Positions 38,733 through 47,026 of a stretch of DNA of 64,000 nt are shown here, piece after piece. Made by a program: the position numbers and the translations under genes. Source of the DNA: Escherichia phage vB_EcoM-E33; the sequence record OL780484.1; one strand, written 5' to 3'. Each line of letters starts with the position of its first letter. The first letter of the stretch is position 1. The notes under the pieces were generated by a model. That model was not told where the DNA came from. It worked only from the letters and a program-made list of their open reading frames with translations, and did no database searches.

Positions 38733-38760
38733 CTTGCTTTTGGCTGATGTGGCTTATAAT
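38733..38760 (+). promoter_or_regulatory. middle/sigma70-type promoter upstream of DNA ligase (TTGCTTTT, 13 nt, TATAAT)
   Basis: motifs read from sequence. Confidence 0.45.
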
Positions 38761-38785
38761 AGAATCCATGACTAATGAGGTGATT

Positions 38786-40312
38786 ATGATTTTAGATATT
38801 TTAAACGAAATTGCTGCTATTGATTCTACTAAAGCTAAAGAAGCCATTATTGCTCGTGAAAAGGACAATGAGCTTCTGAAACGTGTTTATCGTATGGCTT
38901 ATACCCGTCGTCTGAACTACGGTATTAAAAAGTGGCCAGAACCTGGATTTACATCTCAATCCTTTGGTATGATTACTCTTGAAGACCTTCTTGATTTCGC
39001 TGAATTCACATTAGCCACACGTAAGATTACGGGTAATGCGGCTATTGAAGAACTGGCTCAAATCATTGCTGATGCCAAGGCCCCGGATGCCGAGGTATTA
39101 CGTCGTGTAATGATGCGCGACCTTGAATGTGGTGCATCGATTTCTATTGCTAACAAGGTTTGGAAAGGTTTAATCCCTGAACAACCGCAGATGTTGGCGA
39201 GTTCTTATGATGAAGCTTTGATTAAGAAAAATATTAAATGGCCAGCGTTTGCTCAATTAAAAGCTGATGGTGCTCGTTGTTTTGCCGAAGTTCGTAACGA
39301 TGGTGTGACATTCCTTACTCGTGGTGGTAACGAATATCAAGGGCTTAATCTTTTGGCGGCTGAATTAATGGCCATGACCGAAGAAGCTCGACAACGCCAT
39401 CCTAATGGCGTTATGATTGATGGCGAATTAGTTTACCATACTCCTAAGGTAGAACCTAAAGCATCTAATGATTTGTTTAGTATGTTTGACGAGGAACTTC
39501 CTGAATTAAGTAAGGCTAAGGAATTCCAAACTGCCGCCGATCGTTCTACGTCAAATGGATTGGCTAATAAGGCTCTTCAAGGAACTATTTCGGCTACTGA
39601 AGCCGCTGGTATGGTATTACAGGCATGGGATTATGTCCCACTGGATGTCGTGTATTCTGAAGGCAAAATTAAAGGCGATAAGTATGATGTACGCTTTACA
39701 GCCTTAGAACTTATGGTGGCTCATAATGTCGTATTGCATGGTACAACGCGGGTTGAAGCTATCGAAAACCAGTGGGTTAATAATCTTGAAGAAGCTAAAG
39801 TCGTTTATAAGAAATATGTCGACCAGGGCCTGGAAGGTATTATCCTTAAGAACATGGACTCCTACTGGGAAAACCGCCGTTCTAAGAATCTTATCAAGTT
39901 CAAAGAAGTAATCGATATTGCTTTAGAAGTGGTGGGTTATTATGAACACTCGAAGGACCCTAACAAGCTAGGTGGTGTCGAGTTGGTATCACGTTGTCGT
40001 CGAATTACAAGCGACTGTGGTTCAGGCTTTAAAGATACCACCCATAAGAAAGATAAATCAGGTAAAAAAGTATTGATTCCATTGGAAGACCGTCCTGATT
40101 TAGACCGTGAACTTCTTATGAAACAAGCTCGTGAAGGTAAATTGATTGGCCGTATTGCCGACTGTGAATGTAATGGTTGGGTTCATTCTAAAGGACGTAC
40201 CGATACTGTAGGTATTTTCCTTCCAATTATTAAAGGTTGGCGTTTCGATAAAACAGAAGCTGATACATTTGAAGATGTATTCGGGTCGTGGGACCAAACA
40301 GGACTTAATTAA
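38786..40312 (+). CDS. 30: ATP-dependent DNA ligase gp30
   Basis: 508 aa from MILDILNEIAAI; similarity to remembered T4 ligase (KDNELLKRVYR, FAQLKADGARCFAEVR, IDGELVYH). Confidence 0.9.
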   Translation: MILDILNEIAAIDSTKAKEAIIAREKDNELLKRVYRMAYTRRLNYGIKKWPEPGFTSQSFGMITLEDLLDFAEFTLATRKITGNAAIEELAQIIADAKAPDAEVLRRVMMRDLECGASISIANKVWKGLIPEQPQMLASSYDEALIKKNIKWPAFAQLKADGARCFAEVRNDGVTFLTRGGNEYQGLNLLAAELMAMTEEARQRHPNGVMIDGELVYHTPKVEPKASNDLFSMFDEELPELSKAKEFQTAADRSTSNGLANKALQGTISATEAAGMVLQAWDYVPLDVVYSEGKIKGDKYDVRFTALELMVAHNVVLHGTTRVEAIENQWVNNLEEAKVVYKKYVDQGLEGIILKNMDSYWENRRSKNLIKFKEVIDIALEVVGYYEHSKDPNKLGGVELVSRCRRITSDCGSGFKDTTHKKDKSGKKVLIPLEDRPDLDRELLMKQAREGKLIGRIADCECNGWVHSKGRTDTVGIFLPIIKGWRFDKTEADTFEDVFGSWDQTGLN

Positions 40313-40532: not shown

Positions 40533-42428
40533 ATGTCCGAACAATTGAATGAGGTATTTGATGGTGATATAAATTTATCTGCTGTCAATTTAAACCCTAA
40601 ACTTAAAGTCCCACAGATTTGGAATATAAAGGCTGAAGGTAACGAGAACCTTGTTGCCCGCATGGTTTCATATACTTCCGAAGGCGATGTAATTCGTCAG
40701 GTTAAGCCTGGTGACAAGTATGTTCATGTCGTTTTAATGAGCCTATCGGCTAAAGGTTCTCCTGCCGAACTCAAAGGTGGATTAGGTACCAATCCTATTT
40801 CCGCTATTCGTTCTATATTTGATATCGTCTATGAACAGGTCAAGGCCCTTCGTATGGACGCTGTTATGTTCCGTTTTCCTACCAAGAAAATGAAAGGGCA
40901 GGAAAAAGCTATACAGAGGGTATTGGCTAAATTAATAGCCTCTAGAGCAGGCGGACAGTTTAAAGTTCTTGATGCCTTGTATCAATTCACCGGTAAGCAT
41001 TCGTATGTTTTTATCTATCGTAAAAATAAAAATATAGAATCTATAAATGGTATTCCTAATATTAATTTAGAATTGTATACTAAAGTCGAATCTGAAGTCG
41101 GTGACGTGTATGTTTCAAAGAAAACAGGCGAAGATGTTACCAAACTAGAAGCTATAGCTAAGTCCATAGACGAAATAGAAAAATCACGTTCTGATAAAAC
41201 TGTTATAACCAAAACAAAGGTTTCTAAACGTGCTGCTATCAATGCTTTATATCCTACAGCAGAGCCTACAGGATTGAGTAAATTTTCGGCAGAGCACAAA
41301 AAAGCTTATGCAGATTATTCTGCTACTAGTTCCGTTCATTCTTCTGAAGATTCTAAAGAAAGCCAAATAGCTTTAGCCAGTAATAAAATATTAAAAGACA
41401 CCTCTAAAGAAATGGCAGAATATTTGGATTATATTTTTAACGGTGTTAATCCATCATTTGAAGTAGACGAGCGCAAACTTAAACTAATTGCTGATATAAA
41501 GTTTGCTTTAGAGGCATCAGATTCTTTAGATAAATCTAATAGTGTCATAGAGGCTTTAAAATCAGGTAAATCTCATGTAGACATTCTTAGACTAGTCGCT
41601 GCGGCCCTTTTAGATGATTCAGTTAAAGGTACTTGGGCTAGAGAATCTAAAATCAAGGAAGTAATAAAATCCTTAGTAGCAGTTTATACAAAATCTATCC
41701 AACCATTGTTTAAGATATCTGATAATCCTAATTTATCCAAACCTCAAGAAGAGGCAGTCAAAAAGTATACTCGTGGCGGCTACAACCATATAAACAACTT
41801 TTTGCTAGGTAAAACAGATACCACCGATGAAATGATAAAAATGATGGGTGAGTTGGATTCTACATTTGAAAATGGTACAAAACTTCCTAAAGGAACCATA
41901 GTGTATCGTTCTCAGATAATGCCTACCGAAATGGCTTTGAATTCTATAAAACATAAGGTGATGTATCTTCCTATTTTTGCATCAACTTCATTGGCTCCTA
42001 ATATTTTCGGTGAAATGGGTCATGCTCAATCCAACTTAGACCCTGAAGCTCTTTCTAGCGATATAGATAGTAATCTTGAAGACACCATTAAAAGTGCGAC
42101 CGGAAGTGCTAGAGATACCATTAAGCTAGGGTTAATTATTAAAGGTGCTGATAAAATTAAGGTTATTGTGCCCGGTGACTTGGCTAATTGGTCTACAGAA
42201 ACCGAAGTAATTCTTCCTCGTGGGGTTATGCTTAAGATTAATAAAGTATACGGTGCTTCCAAGGGACCTATGGGTTCAATTGGTAAATATGTTTTAGTGG
42301 AATGTGAAGTTGTAGCTACCGAGCAAATCACAGAGGAAAATTCATATAGCACCGGATTCTCGTTTGGAAATTATGATAGAATTATGTATGAAGATTCTAT
42401 GGAAAAATTAGCAAATTTATTTAAATAG
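40533..42428 (+). CDS. Alt-like ADP-ribosyltransferase paralog 1 (631 aa)
   Basis: about 230 aa N-terminus shared with the two downstream ORFs; C-terminal YRSQ ... ASTSL ... ETEVILPRG (R / S-x-S / E-x-E ART triad). Confidence 0.7.
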   Translation: MSEQLNEVFDGDINLSAVNLNPKLKVPQIWNIKAEGNENLVARMVSYTSEGDVIRQVKPGDKYVHVVLMSLSAKGSPAELKGGLGTNPISAIRSIFDIVYEQVKALRMDAVMFRFPTKKMKGQEKAIQRVLAKLIASRAGGQFKVLDALYQFTGKHSYVFIYRKNKNIESINGIPNINLELYTKVESEVGDVYVSKKTGEDVTKLEAIAKSIDEIEKSRSDKTVITKTKVSKRAAINALYPTAEPTGLSKFSAEHKKAYADYSATSSVHSSEDSKESQIALASNKILKDTSKEMAEYLDYIFNGVNPSFEVDERKLKLIADIKFALEASDSLDKSNSVIEALKSGKSHVDILRLVAAALLDDSVKGTWARESKIKEVIKSLVAVYTKSIQPLFKISDNPNLSKPQEEAVKKYTRGGYNHINNFLLGKTDTTDEMIKMMGELDSTFENGTKLPKGTIVYRSQIMPTEMALNSIKHKVMYLPIFASTSLAPNIFGEMGHAQSNLDPEALSSDIDSNLEDTIKSATGSARDTIKLGLIIKGADKIKVIVPGDLANWSTETEVILPRGVMLKINKVYGASKGPMGSIGKYVLVECEVVATEQITEENSYSTGFSFGNYDRIMYEDSMEKLANLFK

Positions 42429-42436
42429 GATAGATT

Positions 42437-44518
42437 ATGACCCAATTAAATGAAGTGTTCGAGTCCGAAGGTACACTGCCTGTTGTGAACTTGAACCCAA
42501 AACTTAAAGTACCTCAGATTTGGAAGATTGGAGACGCGGAGTCTCAGTTAGTAGCACGTATGGTATCCTATGCTTCTGAAGGCGATGCTATTAAACAGGT
42601 TAAGATGGGTGATAAATATGCCCACGTTATCCTTATGAGCCTTTCAGCTAAAGGTACTCCAGCAGAACTTAAAGGTGGCTTAGGCCCTACTCCTATTGAT
42701 GCTATTAATACCATTTTCGACGTAGTATTCGAACAGGTTAAAAAGCTTCGTATGGATGCCGTGATGTTCCGTTTCCCTACTAAGAAAATGAAAGGTCAAG
42801 GCCCTATCGTTCAACGGATTATCCAACGTTTGGTAGCACAGAAAACAGGTGGACGTTTTAAAGTAGTTCCGGCTATGTACCAATTTACCGGTAAACATAC
42901 TTACATCCTGGTAGTTCGTAAACAAGCTGATATAGAAGATATCAAAGGTATGCCTGGAATTAATGCTGAATTGTATACTAAGGTAGATTCTGATGTCGGT
43001 GAAGTTTATATTTCTAAAAAAGAAGGCGTGCAGGTTACTAAAGAAACTGCTATCGCCGGTAGTATTGCTAAGGTTGAAGAACGTCGCACTGATAAAATGG
43101 TTATAACCAAGACTAAGATTTCTCGACGTGCTATTGCAGCAAGTCAATCGTTAGAATCTTATCGTAATGAAAGTGAGCTGTTTAAGAAATATGAAGCTAC
43201 TGCAGTAGATTTTAATAAACCGGCAACAGTTCCATTAATCCCTGAGGCTCAGGAAATGGTTACTAATAACAATTCTCCTGCGGCTAAAAATAAGGTTGCT
43301 AATATAGTGGCTGAAGGCACTGCTGAAGAATTGCATTACGATTATAAAATGTTCCCACTTCACGGTATTGGCGAAATCCAAGAGAAAATTAAAGAGAAAA
43401 TTCTTACAGCAATAAAAAACGAACCTTTGACATCTGTTAAAGCTCTAGAAAAATATGCCTCTGCTATTAATACCATTTTCGAAGAATATAAAGGCGAGTG
43501 GCTGGCTATCCATAACAGAACTCGTAAAGGCCAACCTGATGACCTTTGGAACGAATTGACAGAGGCCAAGTGGAAAGCAGCCAAGACTAAGTTCATTAAA
43601 AAACGCGTGTATAGTTTTGCTGGTGTGGGTGGTGGTATTATGGTTGATATTACTATTGCTCGTGAAGGTTCTAAATATACTCCATCACAAAAGCGTGGTA
43701 TCAGAGAATATTGTGGTTCAGGATATACAGACATAAATAATCTTCTTTTAGGACGTTATAATCCTCAGAACTATGAGGTTATGAGCGAAAAAGATATCGA
43801 ATCCGCTGTAAATAATTTAGATTCAGCTTTTGAAAATGGTGACCGTATACCGGAAGGCATTACAGTTTATCGTGCCCAGAGTATGACTGCTCCTATATAC
43901 GAAGCACTAGTTAAAAATAAAGTGTTTTATTTTAGAAATTTTGTATCTACTTCTTTAACTCCTATAATTTTCGGACGTTTTGGTGTTACGCACGCTGGTA
44001 TTGGTCTTTTAGAACCGGAAGTTCGCAACGAATTGACAGTTGATAAAAATGAAGAAGGAATAACTATTAATCCTAATGAAATAAGAGCATATAAAGAAAA
44101 TCCTGATTATGTTAAAGTTCAAATAGGATGGGCTATTGATGGGGCCCATAAAGTTAATGTCGTATATCCAGGAAATCTCGGAATAGCAACTGAAGCCGAA
44201 GTTATTCTACCGCGTGGATTAATGGTCAAAGTTAATAAAATAACAGATGCTTCTAATAATGATGGAACAACATCTAGTAATACAAAACTCATTCAAGCTG
44301 AAGTTATGACAACAGATGAGCTTCAAGAATCTGTGGTATATGATGGTGATGTACTAATGGAAACCGGCGAGTTGGTCGTATATCAAGATGACTTCGATAC
44401 TTCCGAAAGCCCCTTATCTTTTGATTCATTTGTTAAATCTACACGGTTTGATGTACTGCCTCTTTTGGCTTCATGCATAGACCTCTATGACATCCCAGAA
44501 AAATTCATCCAAGGGTAA
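42437..44518 (+). CDS. alt: Alt ADP-ribosyltransferase (693 aa), likely the T4 alt ortholog
   Basis: C-terminal GITVYRAQSMTAPIYEALVKNKVFYFRNFVSTSL and EAEVILPRGLMVKVNKITDAS match my recollection of T4 Alt. Confidence 0.7.
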   Translation: MTQLNEVFESEGTLPVVNLNPKLKVPQIWKIGDAESQLVARMVSYASEGDAIKQVKMGDKYAHVILMSLSAKGTPAELKGGLGPTPIDAINTIFDVVFEQVKKLRMDAVMFRFPTKKMKGQGPIVQRIIQRLVAQKTGGRFKVVPAMYQFTGKHTYILVVRKQADIEDIKGMPGINAELYTKVDSDVGEVYISKKEGVQVTKETAIAGSIAKVEERRTDKMVITKTKISRRAIAASQSLESYRNESELFKKYEATAVDFNKPATVPLIPEAQEMVTNNNSPAAKNKVANIVAEGTAEELHYDYKMFPLHGIGEIQEKIKEKILTAIKNEPLTSVKALEKYASAINTIFEEYKGEWLAIHNRTRKGQPDDLWNELTEAKWKAAKTKFIKKRVYSFAGVGGGIMVDITIAREGSKYTPSQKRGIREYCGSGYTDINNLLLGRYNPQNYEVMSEKDIESAVNNLDSAFENGDRIPEGITVYRAQSMTAPIYEALVKNKVFYFRNFVSTSLTPIIFGRFGVTHAGIGLLEPEVRNELTVDKNEEGITINPNEIRAYKENPDYVKVQIGWAIDGAHKVNVVYPGNLGIATEAEVILPRGLMVKVNKITDASNNDGTTSSNTKLIQAEVMTTDELQESVVYDGDVLMETGELVVYQDDFDTSESPLSFDSFVKSTRFDVLPLLASCIDLYDIPEKFIQG

Positions 44519-44521
44519 ATA

Positions 44522-46645
44522 ATGGAAAATTTAAACGAAGTTTTTGATAGTGATTCCGCTAAAAACTATCCAGTAACAAATCTTAAACCGGGTTCCGGTA
44601 TTCCACAGATTTTCTCTATCCAAGCGCCAGGTAACGATAACCTGGTTGCTCGTATGGTATCTTATGCGTCTGAAGGCGATGCTATTAAAATGGTTAAGCC
44701 AGGCGATAAGTACGTCCATGTCATCCTAATGAGTTTATCTGCTAAAGGCGCCCCGGCAGAACTCAAGGGTGGTTTGGGTACCGATCCACTCGGTACACTG
44801 AACACCATTTTCGATACCATATATGAACAAATAAACAAACTTAAAATGGACGCGGTTTTGTTCCGTTTCCCTACTAAGAAAATGAAAGGTAAAGGTCCTA
44901 CCGTTCAGCGCGTATTAGCTCGCTTGGCTATGGCTCGTACCGGTGGTAAGTTTAAAGTTGTTGACGACATGTTCCAATTCAGCGGAAAACATACCTACGT
45001 TCTTTTAGTACGTCGTGGTGCTAATATTGAAGATATCAAGGGTATGCCTGAAATTAATGCCGATCTTTATACTAAAGTTGAGTCTAAAGTTGGCGAAGTG
45101 TATGTTTCTAAGAAAACCGGCCAGGCTGTAAGTAAGGTCGAAGCCGTAGCGGCATCTATTGCACAAGTTGAAGAGAAACGTACTGATAAGGCTGTCATTA
45201 CTCGTACTAAGATTTCGCGTCGTATGGCAGCGGCGGCGCAGTATTCTACTGCTGAGCCTGAAACTTTGTCCCCTAAAGAATTGCAGGTTTATAACGAGTT
45301 TGAAGCTTCTGTACCGGTTCACACGGCTGAAGGCCCTGAGAATGAAGGTATTGAACAGATTAGTCAGAACTTTAAAAAAGGTGCTATTACCAAAATGCGC
45401 CAGGCTTCTCAGTTTAAATCTAAGAGCGAGGACCTTGCCAACTTTAGATACACTATTGCTCTCACACACGCTTTAATGACTGATAGTAAATTTAAACTAA
45501 ATTATGCTAATAGAGATAAACAAGGGTTTGAAATTTACTCTAATAATATGGCATTTTTTAATACAGAAGTCGATAGACTTTTAAGTGGCCTTTCGCAAAT
45601 CAATACAACCAATAGTCTGGATATTATTAAGAAAATTGTTAATAACCTGAGTACCCGTTTTAAGGGTTCCCCTTCAGAGAAAGCATCTAGAATTGCTTTC
45701 GCTATGGAAGCCGTTTATAAACTGGTTAACGATTCTATTAGTGATGCATATGCTTATTCAGGCGAGCTCATTAAACCTAAGGACCTAACCAAAGACGAAA
45801 GCAATGCTATTATTGAATATTGCGCGGCTGAATATGCTCCTATGAACTTATTCCTTTTAGGTAAACCTGAATCCGAAAACAATACAACGGCTATTAAATT
45901 GATTAAGGATTTAGACTCGGCATTTACTAAGGGTATTAAACTTCCTAAGGGTACTATTTTGTATCGTGGTCAGGATTTGCCATACAAAATTCTGCGCCAT
46001 AATATCGATAACAAAACATTTTACTTTAAGAACTTTGTGTCAGCCTCACTAAAACCTAACATCTTTGGTGAATTTGGTAAAAATTATATGGCCCTCGACA
46101 ACCAAGCCGTTTTTGTTGGCGGTGAAGGTTCTTTGTCCTCAGCTGATGAGTTGTTTAAATTGGCTAGTGGTAGTTCATCTGATGTGGGTGAAGTCGATGA
46201 CGAAGAGGTAGAATGGGAAGAAGACGAGTTCGGTAATCCAATTGCACCTGAAGGTCCTGCGGATAGAATTGCTGAAATTGGTATGGTTATTCGAGGTGCT
46301 GAAGCAGTTAAAGTTATCGCTCCTGGTGACCTTACAGAATATGCCGAAGAAGCAGAAATTATCCTTCCGCGTGGATTATTGTTGAAGGTTGATAAAGTAG
46401 CGGCTTTTGCCATGAATGATAGAGTATCTCACAAATACCTTATGGAAGCTACCGTAACGCCTCCTTCAGAGCTCAGCGAATCTGTTTACGATGGCGACCA
46501 TTTGATGGAAACTGGTGAAGTTCGCCTGATGGATGGATTCAGTCAATTCTTGGTTAATGAATCCGTTTCTGAAAGCAACGAAGCTATGGAAATCCTTGCC
46601 GCGTCTTTGGATATCTCTTCTTTATCAAATAAATTCAAAATGTAG
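44522..46645 (+). CDS. Alt-like ADP-ribosyltransferase paralog 3 (707 aa) with an acidic insertion
   Basis: shared N-terminal module; YRGQ ... SASL ... EAEIILPRG; acidic segment DVGEVDDEEVEWEEDEFGN. Confidence 0.7.
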   Translation: MENLNEVFDSDSAKNYPVTNLKPGSGIPQIFSIQAPGNDNLVARMVSYASEGDAIKMVKPGDKYVHVILMSLSAKGAPAELKGGLGTDPLGTLNTIFDTIYEQINKLKMDAVLFRFPTKKMKGKGPTVQRVLARLAMARTGGKFKVVDDMFQFSGKHTYVLLVRRGANIEDIKGMPEINADLYTKVESKVGEVYVSKKTGQAVSKVEAVAASIAQVEEKRTDKAVITRTKISRRMAAAAQYSTAEPETLSPKELQVYNEFEASVPVHTAEGPENEGIEQISQNFKKGAITKMRQASQFKSKSEDLANFRYTIALTHALMTDSKFKLNYANRDKQGFEIYSNNMAFFNTEVDRLLSGLSQINTTNSLDIIKKIVNNLSTRFKGSPSEKASRIAFAMEAVYKLVNDSISDAYAYSGELIKPKDLTKDESNAIIEYCAAEYAPMNLFLLGKPESENNTTAIKLIKDLDSAFTKGIKLPKGTILYRGQDLPYKILRHNIDNKTFYFKNFVSASLKPNIFGEFGKNYMALDNQAVFVGGEGSLSSADELFKLASGSSSDVGEVDDEEVEWEEDEFGNPIAPEGPADRIAEIGMVIRGAEAVKVIAPGDLTEYAEEAEIILPRGLLLKVDKVAAFAMNDRVSHKYLMEATVTPPSELSESVYDGDHLMETGEVRLMDGFSQFLVNESVSESNEAMEILAASLDISSLSNKFKM

Positions 46646-46702: not shown

Positions 46703-46993
46703 ATGAAATCTGCATTCCGTTTTAATGGTCAAGAACTGGTAGTTGAAAACGTTATCCCTGCTTCTGAAGAGTTTGACAGTGCAGTGGGTAATGAATTACG
46801 TCGAGTTTTCGGTGAAGACAAACAGTTTGATATCCGACCTGTTGAGAATTTTTCTTATCCAGAACAAACCGAAAACATTTTTAACGGTGTAGTGACAGGA
46901 CAACTCGAATCCGAAGCTCCTATTTCGGTTACGGTGTTTGTTAAAAAGCAACCACTAATGACCACAGCAGGTTTCATTTCGTTCCGTAAATAA
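46703..46993 (+). CDS. hypothetical protein, 96 aa, in its own promoter-to-terminator unit
   Basis: ORF track; RBS GAGGAGAACATT. Confidence 0.55.
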   Translation: MKSAFRFNGQELVVENVIPASEEFDSAVGNELRRVFGEDKQFDIRPVENFSYPEQTENIFNGVVTGQLESEAPISVTVFVKKQPLMTTAGFISFRK

Positions 46994-47002
46994 ACCCCTA
47001 AA

Positions 47003-47026
47003 GGAGAGCATATGCTCTCCTTTTTT
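47003..47026 (+). terminator. intrinsic terminator (palindrome ggagagcatatgctctcc plus TTTTTT) between convergent units
   Basis: perfect 18-nt palindrome plus T-run. Confidence 0.65.

Follow-up and report, generated by a model that had tools for sequence, protein, structure and literature searches.

An acidic, lineage-specific segment in the PN-loop insert of a Dhakavirus Alt paralogue and its possible role in target selection

The 64,000-nucleotide window analysed here, from Escherichia phage vB_EcoM-E33 (record OL780484.1), carries three tandem paralogues of the T4 ADP-ribosyltransferase Alt, which we call W1, W2 and W3; the source phage is a Dhakavirus, that is, a JS98/IME08/QL01-like T-even phage. 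W3 (44522–46645, + strand; 2124 nucleotides, 707 residues) is the altb of JS98 and IME08, identified from its open reading frame (ORF) and from Pfam and PHROG profiles as an Alt-like arginine-specific ADP-ribosyltransferase. Alignments indicate that in all Alt-family enzymes examined the PN-loop region is expanded by a long, hypervariable insert that separates the strand bearing the S-x-S motif from the next β-strand. At the distal hypervariable end of this insert, the Dhakavirus altb lineage appears to have gained a 31-residue acidic and probably disordered segment. We favour, at somewhat less than an even chance, a reading in which this segment is a flexible negative specificity element that steers W3 to basic, arginine-rich host surfaces.

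W3 has the catalytic motifs of the Alt family

W3 is an Alt-family member on every feature examined, namely domain, motifs, full-length profile and synteny. It matches Pfam PF03496 (ADP-ribosyltransferase exoenzyme) with a score of 63.3 bits, where the cutoff is 23.4, and PHROG 802 over residues 1–707 with E=2.6e-250; W1 and W2 likewise pass PF03496 and match PHROG 802 end to end. The 25 records that match the gene best are JS98/IME08-type Dhakavirus phages, in which genes named altb or Alt-like RNA polymerase ADP-ribosyltransferase are 93–98.5% identical to it in DNA; annotation of the gene goes back to the JS98 and IME08 genomes. The elements of the R-S-E motif lie in order on the + strand: catalytic Arg482 within YRGQ (45965–45967), S507-A508-S509 (46040–46048) and, following the ARTT-loop region of residues 600–609, the catalytic E610-A611-E612 (46349–46357; 46319–46357 with the loop). 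In an alignment of 71 sequences, R482, the first serine of S-x-S and both glutamates of E-x-E are invariant. The E-x-E form of the ADP-ribosyltransferase (ART) motif goes with arginine specificity, and W3, judged from its motifs, is a catalytically intact, arginine-specific enzyme of the Alt family. The ADP-ribosylation of RNA polymerase alpha or of host proteins that is ascribed to the Dhakavirus paralogues is a putative activity, annotated by homology.

Foldseek matches the catalytic domain of the W3 model to Vis, Certhrax, C3bot1/2, CDTa and VIP2 (E 2e-7 to 6e-5, probability 1.0, target TM ~0.6). In addition, W3 has an aromatic residue, Y607, three residues before E610, and neither W1 nor W2 has an aromatic at that place in the ARTT loop, the second loop concerned with target recognition, where an aromatic residue has a described role (PMC3000352). 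In T4, each head contains ~40 copies of Alt; gp21 trims the protein at its N-terminus, and after injection it modifies RNA polymerase along with other proteins of the host (PMC9958956; PMC10468400; PMC9503650). Packaging in the head and injection are probable for W3 as well. As a separate observation, W3 and its Dhakavirus orthologues have S-A-S where the usual form is S-T-S; S-A-S also occurs in homologue P0010, and S-C-S, S-T-T and S-T-A are found elsewhere in the family.

The acidic segment occupies a position at which the whole family is variable

An earlier, sequence-only reading had placed an acidic insertion at 46120–46270. That interval encodes W3 residues 533–583 (GGEGSLSSADELFKLASGSSSDVGEVDDEEVEWEEDEFGNPIAPEGPADRI), the peptide was quoted correctly, and S507-A-S509 and E610-A-E612 do flank it. 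The size given, about 45 extra residues, is too large. The spacer from S-x-S to E-x-E is 100 residues in W3, 79 in W2, 69 in W1 and 68 in T4 Alt, which leaves an excess of 31 over W1 and 21 over W2, and of 14–23 over the nearest relatives, the second Alt paralogue of T6 (T6 alt2) and homologues P0002 and P0003, whose spacers are 77, 79 and 86 residues. An excess of at least 45 residues is true only against the canonical toxins, with spacers of 35–44 residues; as computed from the residue numbers in PMC3000352, this range covers five of the six tabulated toxins, and the spacer of TccC5 is 72. Nor do the other two paralogues lack an insert, as had been supposed: W1, W2, T4 Alt and all other family members carry a long, non-homologous and not strongly acidic insert at this place. 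In our survey of spacer length and charge (~190 sequences), spacers run from 55 to 100 residues in 120 word-indexed homologues and from ~46 to 94 in 80 further 50%-identity representatives. Another word-indexed search, with the C-terminal domain alone as query, gave a single hit, the T6-type P0121. The compact PN loop of C3-like and binary toxins (~10–20 residues, spacer ~35–44) is found neither in W3 (100) nor in the Alt family (46–100). Whether the segment is present in all Alt homologues has therefore a divided answer, in that the position of the insert is universal and the acidic core is not.

The PN loop, which follows directly after S-T-S, binds the nicotinamide-side phosphate of NAD, holds the nicotinamide in place by means of an aromatic residue and makes contact with the target; PN-loop insertions of 6–8 residues in EFV, Vis and TccC5 have been discussed as possibly affecting targeting (PMC3000352). 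In W3, the S-x-S motif leads into a conserved PN-loop core, LKPNIFG (residues 510–516, 46049–46069), in which P512 is invariant and F515 nearly so. There follows a proximal module, KNYMALDNQAVFVGGEGSLSSADELFKLASGS (residues 517–551, 46070–46174), delimited by alignment with T6 alt2, P0002 and P0003; it is common to the T6-type second Alt lineage and holds a predicted helix, ADELFKLA (541–548). Past a conserved GS, W3 and these relatives are unrelated in sequence and variable in length until they rejoin at (A/T)E(I/V)G(M/F)VI(K/R)G. It is here that W3 has its Dhakavirus-specific acidic core, SSDVGEVDDEEVEWEEDEFGNPIAPEGPADR (residues 552–582, 46175–46267), which contains 13 Asp/Glu and one Arg, with W565 and F570 as interspersed aromatics. 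The core ends at the β-strand IAEIGMVIR (residues 583–591, 46268–46294; from DSSP on the model, pLDDT 84–94). At the position of the core, T6 alt2, P0002 and P0003 carry ~10–18 unrelated residues, and in alignments the core was not found in these three, in W1 and W2 or in T4 Alt. Identity of W3 to T6 alt2 is ~55–60% in the ART region, and overall identities are 72% to P0002 and 51% to P0003.

The same region is where the paralogues of the window diverge. Pairwise identity among W1, W2 and W3 is 64–68% in the N-domain and 39–47% in the ART core, and falls to 14–31% in the PN insert and 10–24% in the central linker; HMMER breaks most family matches exactly at the PN insert.

In both length and acidity, the W3 spacer is the extreme of the survey, with 23 Asp/Glu, 6 Lys/Arg and a net charge of −17. 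The next most acidic are P0002 (−10), P0138 (−9), and P0003 and T6 alt2 (both −8), and typical values run from ~+5 to −6. When the W3 protein is shuffled 5000 times, a 30-residue window with a net charge of −13 arises in only 10 cases. Without their spacers, the ART domains of W1, W2 and W3 have net charges of +3, −1 and +2, while the spacers alone have −4, −3 and −17, so that the W3 domain with its spacer comes to −15; the charge difference between the catalytic domains is thus due to the acidic spacer of W3.

An origin of the core by slippage or duplication was rejected, in that no tandem repeat was found in 45900–46500 and searches of the rest of the window by blastn-short and tblastn gave no donor sequence. 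In the only hit, the start of the core, SDVGEV (46178–46194), matches the SDVGEV of the W2 N-domain (42989–43005) at 16 of 17 nucleotides (blastn-short E=0.065); this is probably chance, and it could be microhomology in the origin of the insert. A 109-residue antisense ORF across the region (46084–46413, − strand) was considered as an overlapping gene and is very likely not one: it is a Ser/Thr-rich, low-complexity mirror of the GAA/GAT-rich sense strand, and it gives no sign of dual coding, since synonymous divergence (pS 0.26) is as high there as elsewhere.

The segment is predicted as a flexible part of the PN-loop sub-domain

No solved Alt structure was found in the PDB with either the single sequence or the family profile, and a literature search for a prior description of the W3 insert and for virion proteomics of JS98-type phages found nothing usable. 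We considered AlphaFold models. The W3 model, built from the 71-sequence alignment, has a mean pLDDT of 75.9 and places S-x-S on strand 506–509, the next confident strand at 583–591 and the E-x-E strand at 612–615, with 73 residues between S-x-S and the next strand. The ARTT-loop segment before E-x-E is ordinary in length, and therefore all of the extra length of W3 lies in the PN-loop region after P512-x-I-F515-G. Within the insert, pLDDT falls below 50 at residues 518–538, 550–565 and 573–577, the core is mostly below 50–57, and the lone predicted helix, 541–548, is short and of low to moderate confidence. By topology, the segment would belong to a loop close to the active site; confidence in the segment is low.

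The W2 model (mean pLDDT 83.7) has a PN-loop insert (residues 510–560) with pLDDT of 79–96 that forms a small helical sub-domain. This confidently predicted sub-domain of W2, at about residues 507–559 (43955–44114 of the window), is an observation in its own right: judging from the models, Alt enzymes as a family seem to possess a structured PN-loop sub-domain, of which we found no description. To its own version of this sub-domain, W3 probably adds the acidic segment, which is predicted to be disordered.

The acidic core is confined to Dhakavirus and conserved within it

Among 50,697 phage records, the insert peptide is matched in only 43, all of them Dhakavirus. With the C-terminal 238 residues of W3 as query, tblastn recovers 41 phage records at 95.8–100% identity, and the matching region is exactly 714 nucleotides long in all 41. 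The two further records are of vB_EcoM_005 and keep the acidic core, having lost 33 residues that include E-x-E. The unmasked 16-residue tail of the core, EFGNPIAPEGPADRIA(E), is 100% identical in 43 of 43 records.

Across 10 Dhakavirus genomes, synonymous codon variants number 12 in the 31 codons of the core, and the encoded peptide is unchanged (pS 0.26, pN 0, for synonymous and nonsynonymous divergence). In the same genomes, pN/pS is 0.136 in the downstream ART region and C-terminal tail, and pN is 0 in the upstream catalytic part. Among 16 distinct W3 proteins, 56 of 707 positions vary, none of them in the core, against ~2.5 variable positions expected there at the whole-protein rate (probability of none ~0.08) and ~4.2 at the downstream rate (~0.015). 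The lack of amino-acid change despite synonymous change argues that the core is not junk. Even with the limited power of the test, the core behaves like the catalytic core and unlike a drifting linker.

The altb orthologue of vB_EcoM_005 (MK295203.1, 15586–17610; L004, 4594–6618) stands apart from this pattern. Its deletion of 33 residues is in frame and removes E-x-E and the strands that follow (EEAEIILPRG...KYLM); from the sequence, the product should be catalytically dead, unless the record, which is 155 kb against about 170 kb, has an assembly problem.

A possible role in target selection and the alternatives

The PN loop borders the NAD pocket and takes part in contact with the substrate protein, and for this reason the acidic segment may well act as a specificity element. 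In this proposal, electrostatic steering would bring W3 toward basic, arginine-rich host proteins (nucleic-acid-binding proteins, for example) and away from those that W1 and W2 modify, and the three enzymes would together share out, or widen, the range of host proteins that are modified as infection begins. The sequence-only reading had listed a DNA mimic, an autoinhibitory element and a target-selection element. For the last of these, the position directly after the PN-loop core makes a place near the active site, with a part in target choice, a reasonable reading. The proposal is supported by the intact invariant motifs, the location in the PN loop, the divergence of the paralogues at this very place, the extreme charge, the constraint on the core and the presence of Y607.

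Several points weigh against it. T4 Alt acts on RNA polymerase with no acidic stretch, and the segment is therefore not needed for the canonical activity of the family. The target assignment for W3 is itself a prediction. Part of the low pLDDT may come not from true disorder but from a thin lineage alignment, in which the inserts of the roughly five relatives are non-homologous; the distance from the segment to the NAD site is taken from model topology, and the conservation test has limited power.

The segment may instead be a tolerated expansion, in which an acidic run has arisen in a hypervariable surface loop as a lineage-specific accident that at most affects solubility or overall charge. 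The unrelated sequences, of 10–31 residues, found at the same point in the nearest relatives agree with this, as do the family-wide range of spacers (46–100 residues), the low-confidence prediction of the segment, the activity of T4 Alt without it and the only moderate significance of the conservation statistics. A neutral loop would, however, be expected to drift within the lineage as it does between lineages, and we find no amino-acid change against 12 synonymous variants in 10 genomes, the same length in 41 of 43 records and an identical tail in all 43, for which reason we consider this explanation unlikely, if not strongly so. A regulatory role, in which the segment folds as an autoinhibitory lid onto a basic patch or the NAD/substrate cleft and holds activity down, in the cell that produces the phage or in the capsid, until injection, appears distinctly less plausible. 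The ~65 residues of the insert are long enough to reach the cleft and are anchored on the PN loop, an element that in C3-like enzymes is mobile and closes over the nicotinamide (PMC3000352); yet the two models show no confident docked conformation, W1, W2 and T4 Alt, presumably packaged alike, have no such element, and no release mechanism is evident.

As a nucleic-acid mimic with no part in catalysis, the segment would block a host DNA-binding defence protein, or would prevent W3 from sticking to packaged DNA and so ease its exit through the tail. Members of the family are packaged with DNA and injected (PMC9958956; PMC9503650), and the density of negative charge, with 13 Asp/Glu and the aromatics W565 and F570 in 31 residues, is in keeping with such a role. 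We found nothing specific in favour of mimicry. Known DNA mimics such as Ocr, ArdA and Arn are folded scaffolds whose ordered carboxylate arrays imitate the DNA backbone. The W3 segment is short and, with pLDDT mostly below 50–57 and one short helix upstream, predicted to be disordered, with no rigid array of charges; it has no similarity to anything outside the altb gene in the 50,697 phage records, and W1, W2 and T4 Alt are presumably packaged without it. A mimic is, as such, a quite improbable interpretation. Finally, a motif scan finds that I583-A-E585, immediately where the disordered segment ends on its C-terminal side, fits L/I-x-E, the prohead protease consensus, and cleavage at this exposed site as the head matures might nick W3 within its catalytic domain. 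Gp21 does process Alt and other core proteins (PMC9958956). In W3, the motif opens a confidently predicted core β-strand, so that a cut would split the ART fold, and the relatives have MAE, RAE and ETS in its place; we regard processing here as very improbable.

Returning to the specificity element, a bolder version of it can be formulated, which we offer as speculation and judge rather improbable. In this version, the acidic PN-loop segment would be a nucleic-acid-like bait that draws DNA- or RNA-binding host proteins (nucleoid, ribosomal or nuclease-type defence proteins) by their basic faces into the active site, where key arginines would be modified in the first seconds of infection. More broadly, tandem Alt paralogues would evolve new host targets through one module, the hypervariable PN-loop sub-domain.

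Relation to known systems

The acidic core makes W3 a modest lineage-specific variant of a known and annotated enzyme. W3 and T4 Alt (gpAlt, NP_049811), a mono-ADP-ribosyltransferase specific for arginine, share the N-domain, a variable helical middle, the C-terminal R-S-E ART domain and the C-terminal tail, as well as the locus between DNA ligase and gene 54, the catalytic motifs and a long insert after the S-x-S strand, S-T-S in T4 Alt. The two proteins are ~38% identical over an aligned C-terminal segment of 693 nucleotides (~230 residues). In contrast to W3, T4 Alt has a spacer of 68 residues with a net charge of −4 and no acidic run, and it lacks both the S-A-S form and the aromatic three positions before E-x-E. 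Closer to W3 are the second Alt paralogue of T6/T2-type Tequatroviruses (T6 BBF63615, 685 residues) and the metagenomic P0002 and P0003, which belong to the same lineage, one that is degenerate in T4 as alt.-1/alt.-2. They share with W3 the proximal module (KNYMxLD...GEGS...ELxxxGS), the position in the gene array and a mildly acidic spacer (net −8 to −10), and differ from it in the absence of the 31-residue core, with ~10–18 unrelated residues in its place and spacers of 77–86 residues.

In the C3-like and binary toxins (C3bot, iota Ia, CDTa, Vis, Certhrax, EFV and TccC5), the PN loop has the same position after the S-T-S strand, is flexible, stacks an aromatic on the nicotinamide and contacts the target (PMC3000352). 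These loops are only ~10–20 residues long, with insertions of 6–8, whereas the addition in W3 is highly charged and of low complexity. A further likeness is to the acidic disordered tails at the C-termini of SSB and T7 gp2.5, which compete with nucleic acid for basic surfaces. Like the core of W3, which is probably disordered, these tails are short, rich in Asp/Glu and punctuated by aromatics; unlike it, they are free C-termini with defined partner pockets, while the core is a loop within an enzyme, shows no sequence similarity to them and has no known partner.

Among phage proteins, Alt enzymes act first in a T-even infection, and two or three paralogues are present in many of these phages. 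Their divergence, greatest in the central linker and the PN-loop insert, with the catalytic core conserved, provides a handle on substrate choice, and the PN-loop sub-domain is likely to be the specificity module of the tandem enzymes. If the loop does set specificity, it would offer a route to retarget injected ADP-ribosyltransferases; if it has no effect, the acidic core is a lineage-specific decoration of an annotated gene.

The alt locus and the other paralogues

The three paralogues lie in tandem between the DNA ligase gene (gene 30, 38747–40312), which is 5′ of them, and an alt.-3-like ORF of 96 residues directly 3′ of W3 (46703–46993, + strand; PHROG 1739, annotated alt.-3 in relatives). 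Beyond this ORF, gene 54 is on the opposite strand, and a strong terminator-like hairpin with a 10-bp stem and a T-run (47000–47023, + strand) separates alt.-3 from this convergent gene. The order of ligase, alt genes, alt.-3 and gene 54 is identical in IME08, T4 and T6, as expected of a member of the Alt family. The number of full alt copies varies, with one in T4, accompanied by the remnants alt.-1/alt.-2, and two each in T6 and IME08; paralogous duplication of alt was noted earlier (PMC1524935). In T4, mutations that extend the C-terminus of the 96-residue Alt.-3 lead to escape from the CmdTAC defence system (PMC11618068).

W1 (40533–42428, + strand; 631 residues, 69-residue spacer, from ORF and Pfam) is the additional copy relative to IME08, which has only alta and altb; QL01 and UGJNEcP3/4 each have three matching places. 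Its C-terminus is short, without most of the conserved tail (the VYDGDxLMETGE...KFKM region), and its Pfam score is the weakest of the three. W2 (42437–44518, + strand; 693 residues, 79-residue spacer, also from ORF and Pfam) has the same spacer as T6 Alt paralogue 1 except at four positions. W2 is 66–69% identical overall to three homologues with T4 Alt-like spacers (P0098, P0100 and P0090).

All three paralogues have L-N-E close to the N-terminus, at residues 4–6 in W2 (42446–42454) and W3 (44531–44539) and 5–7 in W1 (40545–40553); the corresponding residues of T4 Alt are I-T-E. These N-terminal sites fit the L/I-x-E prohead-protease pattern, which suggests that W1, W2 and W3 may all be packaged and trimmed.

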